Below are positions 2,795 through 64,000 of a stretch of 64,000 bases of DNA, piece after piece. The stretch lies in sequence record PZ452611.1. The stretch is one strand, 5' to 3'. The stretch is from a phage. Every line of letters begins with the position of its first letter. The first letter of the stretch is position 1. The notes under the pieces were generated by a model. That model was not told the DNA's origin and made no database searches. It saw only the letters and a list, made by a program, of their open reading frames with translations. The position numbers and the translations under genes are program-made.

Positions 2795-2989
2795 ATGAGA
2801 AACAAGAAAGAACTTTACTCTGGCGAGTGGATCAACGATCAACAGATTGGAGAGGTAACCTGCTTCCGATGTTTTACCAGGTACAATATTAAAACTGCAC
2901 CAAAAAGTGTTCCAAAGACTGATGGTTATTACATAAAAGAACCTTATTGCCCAAAATGTAAATGCCGATTATATTGGAGTAACCTGTAA
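2795..2989 (+). CDS. small Cys-rich protein (zinc ribbon)
   Basis: 64 aa, CxxC...CxxC, GAGGAGG RBS. Confidence 0.4.
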   Translation: MRNKKELYSGEWINDQQIGEVTCFRCFTRYNIKTAPKSVPKTDGYYIKEPYCPKCKCRLYWSNL

Positions 2990-3251
2990 AAGATTGACAT
3001 CTGAAAACTGCAGTGTATAATATATGCATAAACTAACAGAGAGTGATGTATTATGGTAATTTTTAACCGGGATGGTATCATAGTTAGACAGCACCCGTTC
3101 CTTGAATACTATCAAATTGAGCAATGGTGCTACGGGGATTGCAGTCACTCCTATGGGCAAAGTTGGGGATATCGTACAGTTTTTGAATCCACAGACCTTG
3201 ACAAAGTAAGACAGAAAGTTTTAGAACTTATTAACAACAAGTGAGTATGAT

Positions 3252-3584
3252 ATGGTAACATTAGAAAGACGTAAAGCTATCGCCGCCACACTGGCAGACA
3301 TCTTTTGGGAGTGCAATTTAAAAGATACTAGATATTGTGGCGCATCTGTAGATGCATTGTTCCCACGGCCCACTATTGTTGCAATGGGGAACCTGTTAAA
3401 CGTAGTGTATGGAGCGTGGGACAAAGAAGGTGGATTTTATATCTGGCAACCTGACTACGGGACCTGGAAAGAGGTAAGGGGTGCGGATGACTTTGGGCCT
3501 GCAGTTGCTAAGATGGATGGCTGGGAAATCTATGTTGGAAACGACATGAAGCTGAAGGGCGAGATTGTTTACTGGTTACCTTAA
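3252..3584 (+). CDS. hypothetical protein
   Basis: 110 aa ORF in + early block. Confidence 0.4.
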   Translation: MVTLERRKAIAATLADIFWECNLKDTRYCGASVDALFPRPTIVAMGNLLNVVYGAWDKEGGFYIWQPDYGTWKEVRGADDFGPAVAKMDGWEIYVGNDMKLKGEIVYWLP

Positions 3585-3604
3585 GAAAGTGCAGGAGATA
3601 AAGT

Positions 3605-3850
3605 ATGAACAAAGGGTGGACATTTGTAGACGGCGTTAAAAACATGCCTCTAGGAAAGTATATTGTAGCCATGGCTGATGAGGATGGCAATGTAGATTTC
3701 GGAGCTTGCGAGGTTGTTCTTGCAGGATCTGGTAACTATGTGAGTAAAACCGGGATAATTAACGGTCAGTTCTACTTTGATCACAACCCTGTTGTAGCGT
3801 ATATGGCTATGCCAGAGTTTAAGTTCCCAAAGGAGGATGCAGATGTTTAA
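3605..3850 (+). CDS. hypothetical protein
   Basis: 81 aa ORF, AGGAGA RBS. Confidence 0.45.
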   Translation: MNKGWTFVDGVKNMPLGKYIVAMADEDGNVDFGACEVVLAGSGNYVSKTGIINGQFYFDHNPVVAYMAMPEFKFPKEDADV

Positions 3851-59239: not shown

Positions 59240-59314
59240 GCCCTGTTAGCTTAGTGGATAAAGCAGCGGCCTTCTAAGCCGTTGACACTGGTTCGAGTCC
59301 AGTACGGGGTGCCA
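59240..59314 (+). tRNA. tRNA-Arg (anticodon TCT)
   Basis: hand-folded cloverleaf: 7 bp acceptor with two G-U pairs, anticodon loop CTTCTAA, T-loop TTCGAGT, CCA encoded. Confidence 0.75.
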
Positions 59315-59318
59315 AATT

Positions 59319-59405
59319 GGGGAGTTATCCCGTAGAGGTAGCGGTGTAGACTGTAAATCTATTGTCATTGCGACTCGGGTGGTTCGACTCCACCACTCCC
59401 CACCA
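59319..59405 (+). tRNA. tRNA-Tyr (anticodon GTA)
   Basis: perfect 7 bp acceptor GGGGAGT/ACTCCCC, loop CTGTAAA, long variable arm, T-loop TTCGACT, CCA. Confidence 0.8.
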
Positions 59406-59519
59406 AATTTATATTTTTAGATGCATAAATAATACAGATAATGGCATTGATATTTATCGTCGTTTATACTAGTCACTAACTGCTCGAAAATCAGTGTCAT
59501 TATCAGTATAATTTATAAA

Positions 59520-59610
59520 GGAGGGTAGGGAGCAATGGTGCTCAAGCGGTCTTGAAAACCGTCCCGTTGAGGATGACTCGATGATGGTTCGATTCCATTA
59601 CTCTCCGCCA
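59520..59610 (+). tRNA. tRNA-Ser (anticodon TGA)
   Basis: acceptor GGAGGGT/ACTCTCC, loop CTTGAAA, long variable arm, T-loop TTCGATT, CCA. Confidence 0.75.
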
Positions 59611-59708
59611 CATTGTTGACCTTGTAATTAAGCGAAAGCCGGAAGCAGAACCGGATTATCAAATGTTACAGTCGTCATCGCCGACTAGCAACATGGTCAA
59701 CATACTGA

Positions 59709-59805
59709 GCTAGGTAAGCCCTTTGGCAAGGGCGAGGATTTTTAATCCTGAAAATAGACGAGGTAGTCGTTGAATACATAGGTGGTTCGATTCCATCACC
59801 TAGCA
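59709..59805 (+). tRNA. aberrant tRNA-like element (possible tRNA-Lys TTT-like with about 30 nt extra arm)
   Basis: perfect acceptor GCTAGGT/ACCTAGC, canonical D-arm and T-arm (GGTGGTTCGATTCCATC), anticodon-like loop TTTTTAA, but 30 nt insertion between anticodon and T arms. Confidence 0.35.
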
Positions 59806-59812
59806 CCTTTTT

Positions 59813-59888
59813 GCTGATGTAGCACAATCGGTAGTGCAATTGATTTGTAATCAATAGGTTGTAGGTTCAAGTCCTGCCATCAGCACCA
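59813..59888 (+). tRNA. tRNA-Thr (anticodon TGT)
   Basis: acceptor GCTGATG/CATCAGC, loop TTTGTAA, T-loop TTCAAGT, CCA. Confidence 0.8.
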
Positions 59889-59889
59889 A

Positions 59890-59964
59890 GGCCCTGTAGC
59901 TGGAAGGTTCAAGCAAGCGACTCATAATCGCCAGACGGTGGTTCAATTCCACCCAGGGCCACCA
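59890..59964 (+). tRNA. tRNA-Met (anticodon CAT; Ile-lysidine type not excluded)
   Basis: acceptor GGCCCTG/CAGGGCC, loop CTCATAA, T-loop TTCAATT, CCA. Confidence 0.75.
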
Positions 59965-59975
59965 AATAGTAAATA

Positions 59976-60052
59976 CTCCGCGTAGCTCAGCTTGGTAGAG
60001 CGCCTGATTTGGGATCAGGAGGTCGAGTGTTCGAATCACTCCGTGGAGACCA
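59976..60052 (+). tRNA. tRNA-Pro (anticodon TGG)
   Basis: C1-G72 acceptor, D-arm GCTCAGCTTGGTAGAGC, loop TTTGGGA, T-loop TTCGAAT, CCA. Confidence 0.8.
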
Positions 60053-60473: not shown

Positions 60474-60872
60474 ATGATTTCAGGTTTAACATGGCTGAGT
60501 AGGTATAGAGGGATCATAAAAGGTTTAGTTTTTGCAGCGGCTATAGGTACAGCTTATCTTGGGGCCGTGTATTGGTTTAACTCTAAGCTTAATGAAGCCT
60601 ACCAAGAAGGTGTGTTAGCAACAGAGTTGAAGTGGGAACGGATCCTTGATCAGCAACAAAAGCAGGCCGACAAAATTAAAATGGGCCACGCAGAGGAGGT
60701 TAAAAACCTTGAAAAATCCCTTTCTGATCTACAGGATAAATTAAATATAGCTGAGAGGGCAGGTAGAGAAAAGCAGATTATCTACCTCCAATCACCTGAA
60801 GGTAAGAAGTCAACACTTCCTGATCAGCTTATAGATATTTATAATGAGAGTATCAATCAGGAGGATCGATGA
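60474..60872 (+). CDS. i-spanin (Rz-like), putative
   Basis: N-terminal TM helix then coiled-coil domain; overlaps downstream lipoprotein gene. Confidence 0.55.
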   Translation: MISGLTWLSRYRGIIKGLVFAAAIGTAYLGAVYWFNSKLNEAYQEGVLATELKWERILDQQQKQADKIKMGHAEEVKNLEKSLSDLQDKLNIAERAGREKQIIYLQSPEGKKSTLPDQLIDIYNESINQEDR

Positions 60873-61156
60873 GAGTTGCCACACTGTTTATTGCGTGCTT
60901 GTTATTATGTGGGTGTGCAACCAGCGTTGAGAGAGAATACAAGATTGACCCTCCGGATGTAGGAAGGTTGATTGTTAAACCCCCAGAAGGTGCCATGAAA
61001 CCACCTGCTAAAGCTATGCCTTTGAAGAAAGGTGCGCCAGATGCAGTGAATTCTGGCATTATGAGGGATAATAATCTGTCTTGTAGCAATGATAGAGCTA
61101 AATTGATCATTTTGCAAGACTATATTAGAACACTGTTTCCAAAGGAGAGAGGTTAA
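60869..61156 (+). CDS. o-spanin (Rz1-like outer-membrane lipoprotein), putative
   Basis: lipobox LLLCGCA, Pro-rich periplasmic segment. Confidence 0.6.
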   Translation: MRVATLFIACLLLCGCATSVEREYKIDPPDVGRLIVKPPEGAMKPPAKAMPLKKGAPDAVNSGIMRDNNLSCSNDRAKLIILQDYIRTLFPKERG

Positions 61157-61584
61157 TGTCTAAGATTTACGGACCGTGTTCTGAAAAGCAGAAGATGATC
61201 CTCGAAAACGATGCAGATATCTTGGTAATCGGCGGTGCAGCAGGGTCTGGCAAGTCGTTCCTCTTGCAGTTGATGCCACTTAAAATTATTGATGACCCCC
61301 ACAGCTCTGTGGTTATGTTCCGAAGAACAACCCCACAGTTGGAAGGTGAGGGTGGGCTATGGCCTAAAGCAGTAGCTATTTATAGTGATCTGCCTGAAAA
61401 CATTAAGCCAAAGTTTAGAGAGAAGGATCATAAGTTCATTTTTCCACGGTTTGATCCGAACACTGGCAAGTGGGATAGAAGCAAAAAGGGAGCTGTTGTA
61501 AAATACTGCCACATGGAGTATGTACAAGATAAGCTTAACCATCAGGGGCTTGAGTACACCATGGTTTGCTTCGATGAGGGTTAA
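61156..61584 (+). CDS. terminase large subunit, exon 1 (ATPase N-terminus)
   Basis: Walker A GGAAGSGKS, Walker B-like CFDE; frame closes at TAA inside putative intron. Confidence 0.6.
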   Translation: MSKIYGPCSEKQKMILENDADILVIGGAAGSGKSFLLQLMPLKIIDDPHSSVVMFRRTTPQLEGEGGLWPKAVAIYSDLPENIKPKFREKDHKFIFPRFDPNTGKWDRSKKGAVVKYCHMEYVQDKLNHQGLEYTMVCFDEG

Positions 61585-61587
61585 TTT

Positions 61588-61920
61588 GTAGCTCTCGTAA
61601 AACCTCCCTAATTGCGGGGAAATCTTTATTATTGACACCACCAACCTGTTATGGTAACATAATAGAGGCTTCGAAGAGAGATCGAAGGTATGGTAACAGT
61701 GTGTTAATTTAGATAATCCGCAGCGAAGCATCCGAGAGGATGAACGTTCAACGACTAGTCGAAAGACGTAGAATCAAGCGATTCGAAACGGGAGGGTAAG
61801 CGATTGTTGTCGCTTATAAGATATAGTCTGGTCTGCATGGAGACATGCAGCTGCCTGAGAATGGCGGGGCAAGACTAGCGACCTTGCCTGAACATAAACG
61901 ACACAATTCGAATGGGAGCA
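61588..61920 (+). mobile_element. group-I-like intron 1 (no ORF), boundaries approximate
   Basis: ORF-free insert between terminase frames; shares AATTGCGGGGAAATC and ATAGTCTGGTCTGCATGGAGACATGCAGC blocks with second insert. Confidence 0.5.
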
Positions 61921-61933
61921 GATAGACTATCTG

Positions 61934-62221
61934 ATGTCTCGTCTGCGATCTCAGTCAAAGTATCCATCAAGAATGGTTATCAGCTGTAACCCTGATTCAG
62001 AACACATGCTTGCCAAACTGGTTAGATGGTGGTTGGATGATGAAGGGTATCCAGATCCGGAGAAATGCGGTAAGAAAAGATATTTTATCCGACGCGACGG
62101 TGAATTTATTTGGGGAGACTCTAAGGAAGAGTTGATAGAGAAATACACCACGGTTAACGGACTGGGTGTAGAGATCAAGCCAAGACCGTTGTCATTCTCG
62201 TTCATAGGCGCAACCATTAAA
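61934..62221 (+). CDS. terminase large subunit, exon 2 (approximate)
   Basis: short reading frame (open from about 61898) between the two inserts; assigned by position, no terminase motif recognised in this segment. Confidence 0.45.
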
Positions 62222-62224
62222 TGA

Positions 62225-63194
62225 TAGTGGCTTCGTGCAGAAATGCACGTCGAATAACTTCGTTAATTGCTGGGAAATCCGATTGCTAAACGGACAATCA
62301 GCAGCTATAATTACCCTTCCGAACCTGTAGTAGGGAGATGTTTGAAATGAAAAATTTAGGCTTTTTAGGCTACAATCATTATTGTGCTACATACGATGGC
62401 AGAATTTACAGTCTGTATTCTAATAAATTCCTCCATCCTAATGTGCAGAAAAAGACTGGCTATGCTATGGTAACTTTGTGCGAGGACGGTAAAAAGTTCC
62501 AAGTGCTCGTTCACAGAGTGATTGCTATGACTTTTGTTGATAATGACAATCCCAGCGTGAAAACTCAAGTAAACCACCTAGATGGTAATAAGTTGAATAA
62601 CGCCGCATGGAACCTTGAGTGGACAACGCCTGAGGAAAACACACATCACGCTCATGAAATGGGACTTAAAAAGGACTATGTCAATAAATACAGGTCCCTG
62701 GATGATGCCACCGCTCTTGAAATATGTAGGCTGTTAGAGCAAGGCGCAAGGGTAAAAGACATTTGTGAAATGTTTGGTGTCAATCAACCACTTGTAAGTG
62801 GTATAAAGAATGGCTCAGTATACCCAGATATTTCTAAAGAGTTTAACTTTAGAAAAGTGCCAACCTCTAATCGGATAAGTGAGCACAAGATAATAGGTAT
62901 CTGCGAGGATCTTAGTGATAAGGTCTTGTGTGTAAATAAAATAGCTAAGAAGTGGGGAGTAAGTTTTAGTGTTGTTAAAGGAATAAAAGACCGTAAGACT
63001 TACACCTATATTTCAAACAATTACGATTGGTAATGTAGTTCAACGACTATCCTGAGAGGGAGTAGGGCGCAAGCTTATGGCGCTCGAAAAGCGAAGCACC
63101 CTGAAATGGGTGGTGATATAGTCTACTCTGCATGGTAACATGCAGCAGCACGTAAAGGTGCGGAAGGTGGTGTTGCGACCACCTTTGAATATAA
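62225..63194 (+). mobile_element. group-I-like intron 2 carrying HNH homing endonuclease, boundaries approximate
   Basis: conserved blocks shared with intron 1 (TTAATTGCTGGGAAATCC; ATAGTCTACTCTGCATGGTAACATGCAGC at 63118-63146); internal free-standing ORF. Confidence 0.55.
62338..63033 (+). CDS. HNH homing endonuclease (HNH_3 with C-terminal NUMOD/HTH-like repeats)
   Basis: VHRVIAMTF...NHLDGNKLNNAAWNLEWTTPEEN HNH motif. Confidence 0.85.
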   Translation: MFEMKNLGFLGYNHYCATYDGRIYSLYSNKFLHPNVQKKTGYAMVTLCEDGKKFQVLVHRVIAMTFVDNDNPSVKTQVNHLDGNKLNNAAWNLEWTTPEENTHHAHEMGLKKDYVNKYRSLDDATALEICRLLEQGARVKDICEMFGVNQPLVSGIKNGSVYPDISKEFNFRKVPTSNRISEHKIIGICEDLSDKVLCVNKIAKKWGVSFSVVKGIKDRKTYTYISNNYDW

Positions 63195-64000
63195 GGATTC
63201 GATAATCCTGTCTGCTTAAGAGACAACCCAGAATACCTTGCTTTTCTTGAAGGTCTGCCCGAGCTTGAAAAAGCCCAGCTTCTTCATGGCAACTGGTTTG
63301 CAAAGCCTGAGGGTGCAAACTATTTTCAAAGATCTTTCCTTCGTGATGCCGATAGAGTACCCCTTGGATCAGTATCTTGCAGGGCATGGGATAAGGCAGG
63401 AACCGAGAGAACTTCCGGTAATAAATTTCCTGACTTTACCGCCAGTATTAAGGTAAGTAAAGATAGCGACGGCTTTTATTACCTGTCCGGTGATTATTGT
63501 CCTGAGAACGTGGATGACGGGAGGTATTCCACAGGTCTGGAAGGCAAGTTCTGTAAAAAGGCTGGTGAACGAGATGTGATCATCAGGAAACAGGCGCAGT
63601 TTGATGGTGATGATTGTATAATCGTATTCTCTGTGGACCCTGGTCAGGCAGGTAAGAGTGAGTTCTTAACCTCATCCAGATCCTTGCTCGCCGAAGGGTT
63701 CAGGGTTGAAGAAGACCCAATGCCTTCCAACAAATCTAAACTGACAAGGTTCTCACCTTTTGCCAATCTTGCACAACAAGGAATGGTGAGGATTGTAAAA
63801 TCCAGTTTCCATCCTGATACTCTGGAAGCATTTCTGACTGAACTTGAAAAATTCAACGGGGAAAGATCAACATTTAACAGAAAAGACGACTGGGCCGACT
63901 GTGTAGCTTCTGCGATTAATTTCCTGGAGAAAGAGGAGGTAGCACTTCCTTGTGTGATTCCATCAATCTCATCACCTTCTATGTTCAAGCGTTTTATCTA
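63195..64000 (+). CDS. terminase large subunit, exon 3 (nuclease domain), truncated at window end
   Basis: open frame without ATG: LLHGNWF..., VFSVDPGQAGK..., RKDDWADCVASAINF typical of terminase nuclease domain; not in ORF track because no start codon. Confidence 0.65.

Follow-up and report, generated by a model that had tools for sequence, protein, structure and literature searches.

The window analysed here, a stretch of 64,000 nt that is 100% identical to Escherichia phage rV5 (DQ832317/NC_011041), ends in the gene for the large terminase subunit, terL, whose coding sequence lies in three pieces separated by two inserts (Table 1). A split rV5 terL with two introns is already known, as the GenBank record annotates a three-exon join ("ORF64ABC") together with ORF65, an HNH homing endonuclease, and the arrangement was published in 2013 under the section heading "Introns in terminase" (Kropinski et al. 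2013, Virol J 10:76; PMC3606486). In the accessible part of that paper's text the intron call rests on BLASTX, and fold, boundaries and population comparison are not given. To this account we add exact boundaries, Rfam scores, and the occupancy of the introns together with its association with exon bases. Alignment of rV5 terL with that of phage JeffSchatz, an intron-less relative, fixed the boundaries between exons and introns.

Table 1. Features of the rV5 terL locus (positions in the window)
Feature	Position	Strand	Remarks
terL exon 1	61156-61581	+	142 codons; boundary from alignment with intron-less JeffSchatz terL
Intron 1	61582-61900	+	319 nt, predicted ORF-less group I intron; Rfam RF00028
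Intron 1 J3/4-P4 core block AAUUGCGGGGAAAUC	61610-61624	+	aligned to Rfam consensus AAUUGCGGgAAA
Intron 1 P7 3′ strand and P9 hairpin	61823-61851	+	aligned to Rfam consensus AUAGUCu...UgucagGAAAcugacaG
terL exon 2	61901-62217	+	317 nt; boundaries from intron-less relatives
Intron 2	62218-63196	+	979 nt, predicted group I intron, ORF in putative P6 loop
Intron 2 J3/4-P4 core block	62263-62280	+	from cmscan alignments
I-HmuI-like HNH homing endonuclease gene (predicted)	62347-63033	+	228 aa from ATG 62347
Intron 2 P7 3′ strand and P9 hairpin	63118-63146	+	from cmscan alignments
terL exon 3	63197-64001	+	nuclease (RNaseH-like) domain; boundary from intron-less relatives

The terL exons and their joined product

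The first frame opens at the ATG at 61156 and encodes the N-terminal ATPase part of the protein, with Walker A (GGAAGSGKS, DNA at 61234) and Walker B (MVCFDEG) motifs. The preliminary description, made from the sequence alone, had recognised this ATPase frame correctly but placed its stop at 61585; the TAA occupies 61582-61584, directly after U61581, which is the last base of exon 1 and the U of the 5′ splice site. The middle frame that it gave as about 61898-62221 is indeed open over this span, the true exon being the shorter interval of Table 1, which ends on U62217 in codon phase 2. It was also right that the nuclease-domain frame lacks a start codon where it opens, after the stop at 63195, although the true exon starts at 63197, likewise without a start codon. 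Within the window this exon covers 63197-64000; the last base of its TAA stop, position 64001, to which the end of the GenBank terL CDS maps, lies outside.

The three frames cover consecutive parts of one T4-type terminase in Pfam, the first matching Terminase_6N positions 2-104, the second Terminase_6N positions 109-162 and the third Terminase_6C, all above the cut-offs. Once both inserts are removed, the resulting protein of 515 aa matches the uninterrupted TerL of JeffSchatz with 100% identity; an alignment of the concatenated exons with intron-less terminases was among the checks proposed beforehand. All 27 nucleotide differences between the spliced rV5 terL and JeffSchatz terL are synonymous. 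The conceptually spliced product matches PHROG 979 (terminase large subunit) in a single stretch over residues 1-513 (694 bits, E = 3.4e-208). By these matches rV5 TerL is a T4-type large terminase with an N-terminal ATPase carrying Walker A and B motifs and a C-terminal RNaseH-like nuclease.

Several GenBank records enter the terL pieces as separate CDSs (e.g. naam, HdK5, YP-6 and 18-1-2), which would suit a truly split terminase in which three separately translated polypeptides assemble without splicing, the inserts being intergenic DNA with a free-standing HNH gene. There is precedent for phage genes being split by free-standing homing endonucleases. We consider this reading hardly credible at rV5 terL: a start codon is missing where exon 3 begins, exon 2 breaks off inside a codon, Rfam identifies the inserts as genuine group I ribozymes, and an ORF-less insert of 268 nt in phage RudolfGeigy would be left unexplained. 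Moreover, excision at sites obeying the U•G and terminal-G rules restores the uninterrupted protein without a single amino acid change, on which ground a split gene and a pseudogene are both rejected. An intein is rejected for the window as well, given that the inserts hold stops, shift the frame and match an RNA family; the in-frame insert of phage 18-1-2 gave no significant intein match in profile and PDB searches. Finally, a group II intron is rejected on the Rfam search of the whole window, which at the gathering threshold returned RF00028 and tRNA families only.

Two group I introns with a shared conserved core

Intron 1 matches the Rfam group I family RF00028 (Intron_gpI) over the full model (1-253) with 84.9 bits (E = 3.6e-20) against a gathering score of 50 bits. 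Its minimum free energy has a z-score of -6.0, and the corresponding fold recovers P1, P3, P4, P5, P6, P8 and P9. With its ORF in place, intron 2 gives split RF00028 matches of 35.2 and 21.4 bits, both below the gathering score, because P6 is interrupted by an ORF segment of 732 nt. The assignment of rV5 intron 2 to group I is instead supported by the natural ORF-less variant of RudolfGeigy, which occupies the same site and scores 95.6 bits, and by the core alignment, as the flanking exon and intron 2 core of RudolfGeigy and rV5 are 97-98% identical. Thus the covariance-model scan suggested beforehand bears out both introns, the second through its ORF-less form. At the insertion point of intron 2, the intron-less terL of JeffSchatz reads ...GCAACAAT on the upstream and ATTCGATAAT... 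on the downstream side.

Both introns keep the U•G rule at the 5′ splice site, with P1 pairs U61581•G61591 and U62217•G62227 in the cmscan alignments, and the terminal-G (omega-G) rule, with G61900 and G63196 as last bases, at splice positions that were set independently of these rules, from intron-less alleles. The P7 pseudoknot and P10 are covariance-model assignments, and the segment from the P7 5′ strand to the P3 3′ strand holds a hairpin-forming insertion of 29 nt in intron 1 and of 38 nt in the ORF-less intron 2 of RudolfGeigy. Introns of subgroup IA carry P7.1/P7.2 at this position. Among four variants of intron 2, compensatory changes are seen in P2 (G-C to A-U), P5 (U-A to C-G) and P8 (U-G to A-U), alongside one-sided G-U changes, which would lend the helices modest covariation backing from few and closely related sequences. 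Taken together, these observations mark both inserts as group I introns, and the earlier claim of a terL split by two such introns, one with an HNH ORF, is upheld by the Rfam scores, the reconstituted exons and the I-HmuI homology described below.

The preliminary description further held that the two inserts share sequence blocks and are related. The blocks are located at 61610 and 61823 in intron 1 and at 62263 and 63118 in intron 2, and their similarity is above chance when intron 1 is compared with intron 2 by blastn, which finds one match of 35 nt with 85.7% identity (E = 1.4e-7) and one of 30 nt with 80% identity (E = 8.8e-4). The relation is true at the level of intron class, that of a td-like core, and fails for the peripheral architecture, which differs. 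A recent origin of one intron from the other, by reverse splicing or ectopic homing within terL, might be read from these blocks, which include a near-identical P9 hairpin (CUGCAUGG-AG/UA-ACAUGCAG), and from the td-like character common to both. Yet the likeness is confined to three blocks of 35, 30 and 12 nt that belong to the conserved catalytic core and recur in part both in the consensus of the Rfam family and in the td intron of T4, to which P7-P9 of intron 1 is 83.5% identical over 79 nt. Furthermore, P2 is missing from intron 1 and present in intron 2, P5 carries a long extension in the former and is short in the latter, and the endonuclease families of the relatives differ by loop: in many of them an endonuclease VII-like ORF replaces the P8 hairpin of intron 1, which is without an ORF in rV5, and in intron 2 an HNH ORF lies in P6. 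As only the conserved td-like core is common to both, the introns are probably not recent duplicates, and we regard a recent paralogous origin as unlikely, disfavoured by both the architecture and the family-wide nature of the shared blocks.

The HNH endonuclease gene of intron 2

The complete HNH ORF that had been noticed at 62338-63033 is intact. GenBank starts it at the ATG at 62338 (231 aa), and the second ATG, at 62347, is the more likely start. The loop that holds the ORF would be closed by a putative P6 pairing CUAUA (62305-62309) with UGUAG (63034-63038). In Pfam the product matches HNH_3 with 28 bits (cut-off 24.8) and has helix-turn-helix matches, and it matches PHROG 59 (HNH endonuclease) with E = 5.4e-51. 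Its alignment with I-HmuI (PDB 1U3E; E = 3.6e-11) covers residues 8-151 with the N-termini in register and conserves the VxH-DGNK-NN...NL-W-T block, including the His and Asn of the HNH motif. The ORF is intact in 6 phages and, with pN/pS of 0.01-0.13, under purifying selection; from the homology to I-HmuI we predict that it encodes an I-HmuI-like HNH homing endonuclease.

The location of the HNH gene inside a terminase gene invites the view that its product is a packaging accessory of the terminase instead of a homing enzyme. HNH-terminase partnerships exist in other phages, and in HK97-like cos phages HNH genes adjoin those of the terminase. For rV5 we deem this very improbable, and reject it on the patchy distribution and I-HmuI-type architecture of the protein: most close relatives lack the ORF though their terminases are nearly identical, and the ORF is of the I-HmuI type, with NUMOD-like and helix-turn-helix modules, and not of the short HK97 gp74 type. 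That the ORF lies in the putative P6 loop of its group I intron also speaks for a homing endonuclease, this loop being the classical place for such genes.

Between 60400 and 64000, promoter-like sites (7 against 6.6 expected) and terminator-like sites (5 against 2.6 ± 1.7 expected) occur at chance level, and therefore we make no claim on separate expression of the HNH gene. One of the promoter-like sites, at 62283-62311, lies just upstream of the ORF.

Occupancy, splicing and homing

Intron occupancy was compared by sequence in 14 genomes, which are not phylogenetically independent. Intron 1 is carried by 6 and absent from 8, intron 2 is carried by 7 and absent from 7, and the presence of either is independent of that of the other. 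The HNH ORF occurs in five of the 14 (rV5, HdK5, ECML-10, PDX and YP-6), and two (RudolfGeigy and WM) carry intron 2 without it. This presence/absence polymorphism is found among phages that are 96-99% identical, and close relatives that carry one intron, both or none, some with and some without ORFs, are what one expects if the introns are mobile. The exon bases vary with occupancy: at site 1, base -1 is T in 6/6 carriers and C or A in 8/8 non-carriers, and at site 2, base -3 is C in 7/7 carriers and A in 7/7 non-carriers. Both carrier bases improve P1 pairing, and the association could reflect co-conversion or shared descent instead of a pairing constraint.

We propose, with high confidence, that rV5 terL is transcribed as one pre-mRNA with two td-like (probably subgroup IA-type) self-splicing group I introns. 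Each intron would fold into a P1-P9 ribozyme whose internal guide sequence base-pairs with the last bases of the preceding exon, so that the 5′ splice site is marked by a U•G wobble. Two transesterifications would then excise 61582-61900 and 62218-63196, leaving a continuous terL mRNA of 515 codons. On RNA that remains unspliced, the in-frame stops at intron bases 1-3 (the TAA with which intron 1 opens) and 5-7 (intron 2) would halt ribosomes. We infer that rV5 terL is spliced in vivo; the essential terminase must be made, because rV5 is a propagated and viable phage, and in Pectobacterium phage CB7, a member of the same subfamily, an HNH-containing terL intron splices as judged by RT-PCR (PMC7344957). 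The HNH protein is presumably active as an endonuclease in rV5 and, by analogy with I-HmuI, would nick or cut its terL target in a co-infecting intron-less phage, upon which recombinational repair would copy the intron and nearby exon bases into the intron-less genome, completing the homing event. The occupancy polymorphism and the purifying selection on the ORF are indirect evidence for such homing.

Tentatively, the terL locus of Vequintavirus may offer a natural population snapshot of the homing cycle, in which the introns assort independently, each with or without an ORF, and occupancy is linked to a synonymous base that strengthens P1. Standard group I intron biology would lead one to expect such a snapshot, and no paper describing one for Vequintavirus was found in the searchable literature. 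If the C or A at -1 of intron-less alleles blocks splicing, these synonymous bases would act as an invasion barrier as well as a co-conversion footprint. The occupancy polymorphism in near-identical phages could be convenient for experiments on homing and co-conversion. In itself, rV5 terL holds no new principle, mobile group I introns that reside in an essential phage gene being textbook biology. Its chief importance is for annotation quality, as in many GenBank entries for close relatives terL is missing or its exons appear as separate genes named "terminase" or "hypothetical", and the rV5 boundaries are directly transferable to them.

Among known systems, the td-like IA introns of T4 td, SPbeta bnrdE and the SPO1 DNA polymerase gene share their ribozyme class with the rV5 introns. 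Over its 3′ 79 nt, intron 1 shares 83.5% identity with the T4 td intron, and the SPBc2 bnrdE intron is about 73% identical to the core of intron 2 over 77% of its length. Td-like phage introns carry their ORF in a peripheral loop, as does rV5 intron 2, but they sit in genes of nucleotide metabolism or polymerases, whereas the rV5 introns sit in a terminase gene. The td endonuclease, I-TevI, is of the GIY-YIG type, unlike that of rV5, which is an HNH protein like I-HmuI, the nicking endonuclease of the SPO1 DNA polymerase intron; I-HmuI has 174 aa against 228 aa for the rV5 protein, which has an extra C-terminal region with more helix-turn-helix-like matches. Group I introns in terL itself are described for Lactobacillus phage LL-H (cited in PMC3606486) and for Bastillevirinae (PMC11878797). 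Together with CB7, these phages resemble rV5 in having self-splicing group I introns, often with HNH ORFs, in the same class of gene, although the phages are different and the likeness is one at the level of gene class.

Three exons of the large terminase gene

The three frames that the preliminary description had taken for one split terminase do cover successive parts of a single T4-type terminase in Pfam: the ATPase frame (ATG 61156 to TAA 61582-61584) corresponds to Terminase_6N positions 2-104, the short middle frame (open 61898 to 62221) to Terminase_6N positions 109-162, and the nuclease-domain frame (opening at 63195 and continuing past the window end) to Terminase_6C. We set the exon/intron boundaries by alignment with the relative JeffSchatz, in which, as in about half of close relatives, terL is uninterrupted, there as a single CDS. 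The conceptually spliced gene is 1548 nt long, the window stopping one base before the end of its stop codon, and it encodes a 515-aa protein with 100% identity to JeffSchatz TerL, all 27 nucleotide differences between the two genes being synonymous. Residues 1-513 match PHROG 979 (terminase large subunit) in a single stretch at 694 bits. In-frame stops occupy bases 1-3 of intron 1 and bases 5-7 of intron 2. The terL start codon shares bases with the stop codon of the o-spanin gene just upstream; a small ORF precedes the spanin pair, and before it Rfam places a cluster of six tRNA genes, of which two score weakly (35.5 and 29.9 bits).

Features of the rV5 terL region (exons and introns by JeffSchatz alignment)
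Feature	Window coordinates	Length
tRNA gene cluster	59240-60049	
i-spanin	60474-60872	
o-spanin	60869-61156	
terL exon 1	61156-61581	426 nt
Intron_gpI match	61572-61850	full model
terL intron 1	61582-61900	319 nt
terL exon 2	61901-62217	317 nt
terL intron 2	62218-63196	979 nt
HNH ORF	62338-63033	231 aa
terL exon 3	63197-64001	805 nt

By megablast against a phage collection, window 61100-64000 matches Escherichia phage V5/rV5 at 100% over the whole query on the reverse strand (DQ832317.1, NC_011041.1). Both records annotate a single CDS "terminase large subunit, ORF64ABC" as a three-piece join, in which pieces 2 and 3 are separated by another CDS, "HNH homing endonuclease, ORF 65". The rV5 genome paper has a section "Introns in terminase", in which the TerL gene is placed in three segments per BLASTX, plus a homing endonuclease, and David Shub's help with defining the intron location is credited (Kropinski et al. 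2013; PMC3606486). The introns were therefore already known, and are a published, annotated case of a well-known element type, of low interest except for annotation transfer and a possible homing model.

Group I structure and probable splicing

Both inserts are group I introns, as had been proposed. In a covariance-model scan, Rfam Intron_gpI fits the first insert with 84.9 bits (E = 3.6e-20), above its gathering score of 50, and it is the sole non-tRNA Rfam family detected in the 64-kb window, terL intron 1 being its only match at the gathering threshold. Intron 2 gives split sub-threshold matches only (35.2 and 21.4 bits), because about 730 nt including the ORF interrupt its core; the ORF-less, 268-nt intron at the same site in the relative RudolfGeigy scores 95.6 bits. 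Folded alone with short exon flanks, intron 1 has an MFE z-score of -6.0 and a fold containing P1, P3, P4, an extended P5, P6, P8, P9 and two 3' hairpins. Among four intron 2 variants (rV5, RudolfGeigy, VB-EcoM-WM and Avunavirus 18-1-2), compensatory changes are seen in P2 (G-C to A-U), P5 (U-A to C-G) and P8 (U-G to A-U). Finally, the 5' splice-site U pairs with the internal-guide G in both introns (U61581•G61591, U62217•G62227), and both end in G. Splicing of the rV5 terL pre-mRNA in vivo is very likely, since the phage is viable and terL is essential; in a relative, Pectobacterium phage CB7, RT-PCR shows that a terL HNH intron is spliced (PMC7344957).

Intron occupancy among relatives

Compared by sequence, 14 vequintavirus genomes carry the two introns independently of each other. 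JeffSchatz, FFH2, FV3 and EduardKellenberger have neither; naam has only intron 1, as do MaxBurger and ECP26 in an 883-nt form with an endonuclease VII-like ORF in place of the P8 hairpin; ECML-10, PDX and YP-6 have only intron 2 with HNH, and VB-EcoM-WM only an ORF-less intron 2. Both introns are present without ORFs in RudolfGeigy, both with ORFs in HdK5, and in rV5 an ORF-less intron 1 accompanies an intron 2 with HNH. The relatives' intron 1 ORF matches Pfam Endonuclease_7 (E = 2e-21). In MaxBurger (L006, 1001-1591), HdK5, ECP26 and others it lies on a segment of ~580 nt that replaces the hairpin found at window 61798-61815 in the ORF-less rV5 form; it encodes 196 aa, and its 3' end overlaps the conserved J8/7 core by about 10 nt. 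In an evenly spaced subset of the 149 matching records, 47 rows at >= 95% identity included 23 without intron, 22 with intron 1 and 8 with intron 2, categories inferred from coverage and span apart from genomes checked by sequence.

Occupancy is linked to synonymous exon bases in 14/14 genomes. At site 1, base -1 is T in 6/6 carriers and C or A in 8/8 non-carriers; at site 2, base -3 is C in 7/7 carriers and A in 7/7 non-carriers. Carrier bases improve P1 pairing, giving the obligatory U•G pair at site 1 and a C-G pair at site 2. This association, drawn across related genomes and hence not a statistical test, would fit either a constraint on splicing or co-conversion as part of homing, or the two together.

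GenBank annotation of the terL exons is inconsistent across naam, HdK5, ECML-10, PDX, YP-6, WM and ECP26, some records splitting the exons into individual CDSs or calling them "hypothetical protein". In ECP26 the first exon is labelled "putative recombinase endonuclease", the naam o-spanin "putative large terminase subunit", and the ECML-10 and PDX records hold no terL CDS. Furthermore, 18 unannotated "Campylobacter phage" records (MG065644-MG065690; host C. jejuni) have terL 97-99% identical to E. coli vequintaviruses, and their host label looks doubtful.

In Escherichia phage 18-1-2 (OK136180.1), an Avunavirus, the first "terminase" CDS (882-2228) is 448 aa long because a 329-aa in-frame insert interrupts the Walker A motif (IIGGAAG/CLSKDHEVL...VVVTGN/SGKSYLLQLMP; rV5 equivalent IGGAAGSGKSFLLQLMP). 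With its Cys start and an Asn followed by Ser, the insert looks like an intein in the P-loop; searches of Pfam, NCBIfam and PDB sequences gave no significant match, the best being the AceL NrdHF intein (E = 0.38). If it is one, this terL has an intein in addition to its two introns: the site-2 intron of rV5 at about 2816-3794, with an HNH gene 81.6% aa identical to rV5's, and an upstream intron (2167-2417; just 34 bits on Rfam) at another site, after ...LDHQG, about 10 codons upstream of rV5 site 1.

The HNH gene and the origin of the two introns

The HNH ORF is complete, as first described, and matches Pfam HNH_3. It is intact in 6/6 phages examined with pN/pS of 0.01-0.13, a set that includes an Avunavirus copy whose synonymous sites are saturated (pS 0.85), and is therefore a maintained, functional gene for a putative endonuclease. 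Its product is homologous to I-HmuI (PDB 1U3E; E = 3.6e-11), the HNH nicking endonuclease from the SPO1 DNA polymerase intron, and may drive homing. If translation begins at the second ATG (62347), the two N-termini are in register; some relatives carry the equivalent annotated start, and a Shine-Dalgarno-like GGGAG precedes this ATG by 10 nt and ATG 62338 by just 1 nt. The ORF segment stands where the ORF-less variant has a short P6 hairpin and would lie in the P6 loop, CUAUA 62305-62309 pairing with UGUAG 63034-63038. Scanning the terL region for sigma-70 promoters and terminators revealed no excess over chance; one sigma-70-like site (62283-62311; TTGCTA, 17-nt spacer, TATAAT, 10/12) lies within intron 2 directly upstream of the ORF, in a region where the site count is at chance level.

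The preliminary description had also called the two introns related, from four shared blocks that we located at 61610, 62263, 61823 and 63118. Their similarity is above chance, blastn aligning one stretch of 35 nt with 85.7% identity (E = 1.4e-7) and another of 30 nt with 80% identity (E = 8.8e-4), but the relation is only that of members of the same class: it is limited to J3/4-P4, J6/7-P7 and P7'-P9, and the common blocks are mostly found in the Rfam consensus. P2 is missing from intron 1 and present in intron 2, and P5 carries a long extension in the former and is short in the latter. Core-limited similarity, family-wide blocks and differing P2/P5 architecture argue against a recent duplication of one intron, and for these reasons we see two td-like introns that probably arrived by separate invasions. 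Td-like intron sequence also occurs in vequintavirus nrdD, in the anaerobic ribonucleotide reductase region of Escherichia phage SYGMH1 (search matches H135 and H174), and in the LL12 DNA polymerase gene (PMC6658697). The T4 td intron is 83.5% identical to the P7'-P9 region of rV5 intron 1 over 79 nt, and the SPBc2 bnrdE intron and other Bacillus phage introns show about 73% identity to the core of intron 2.
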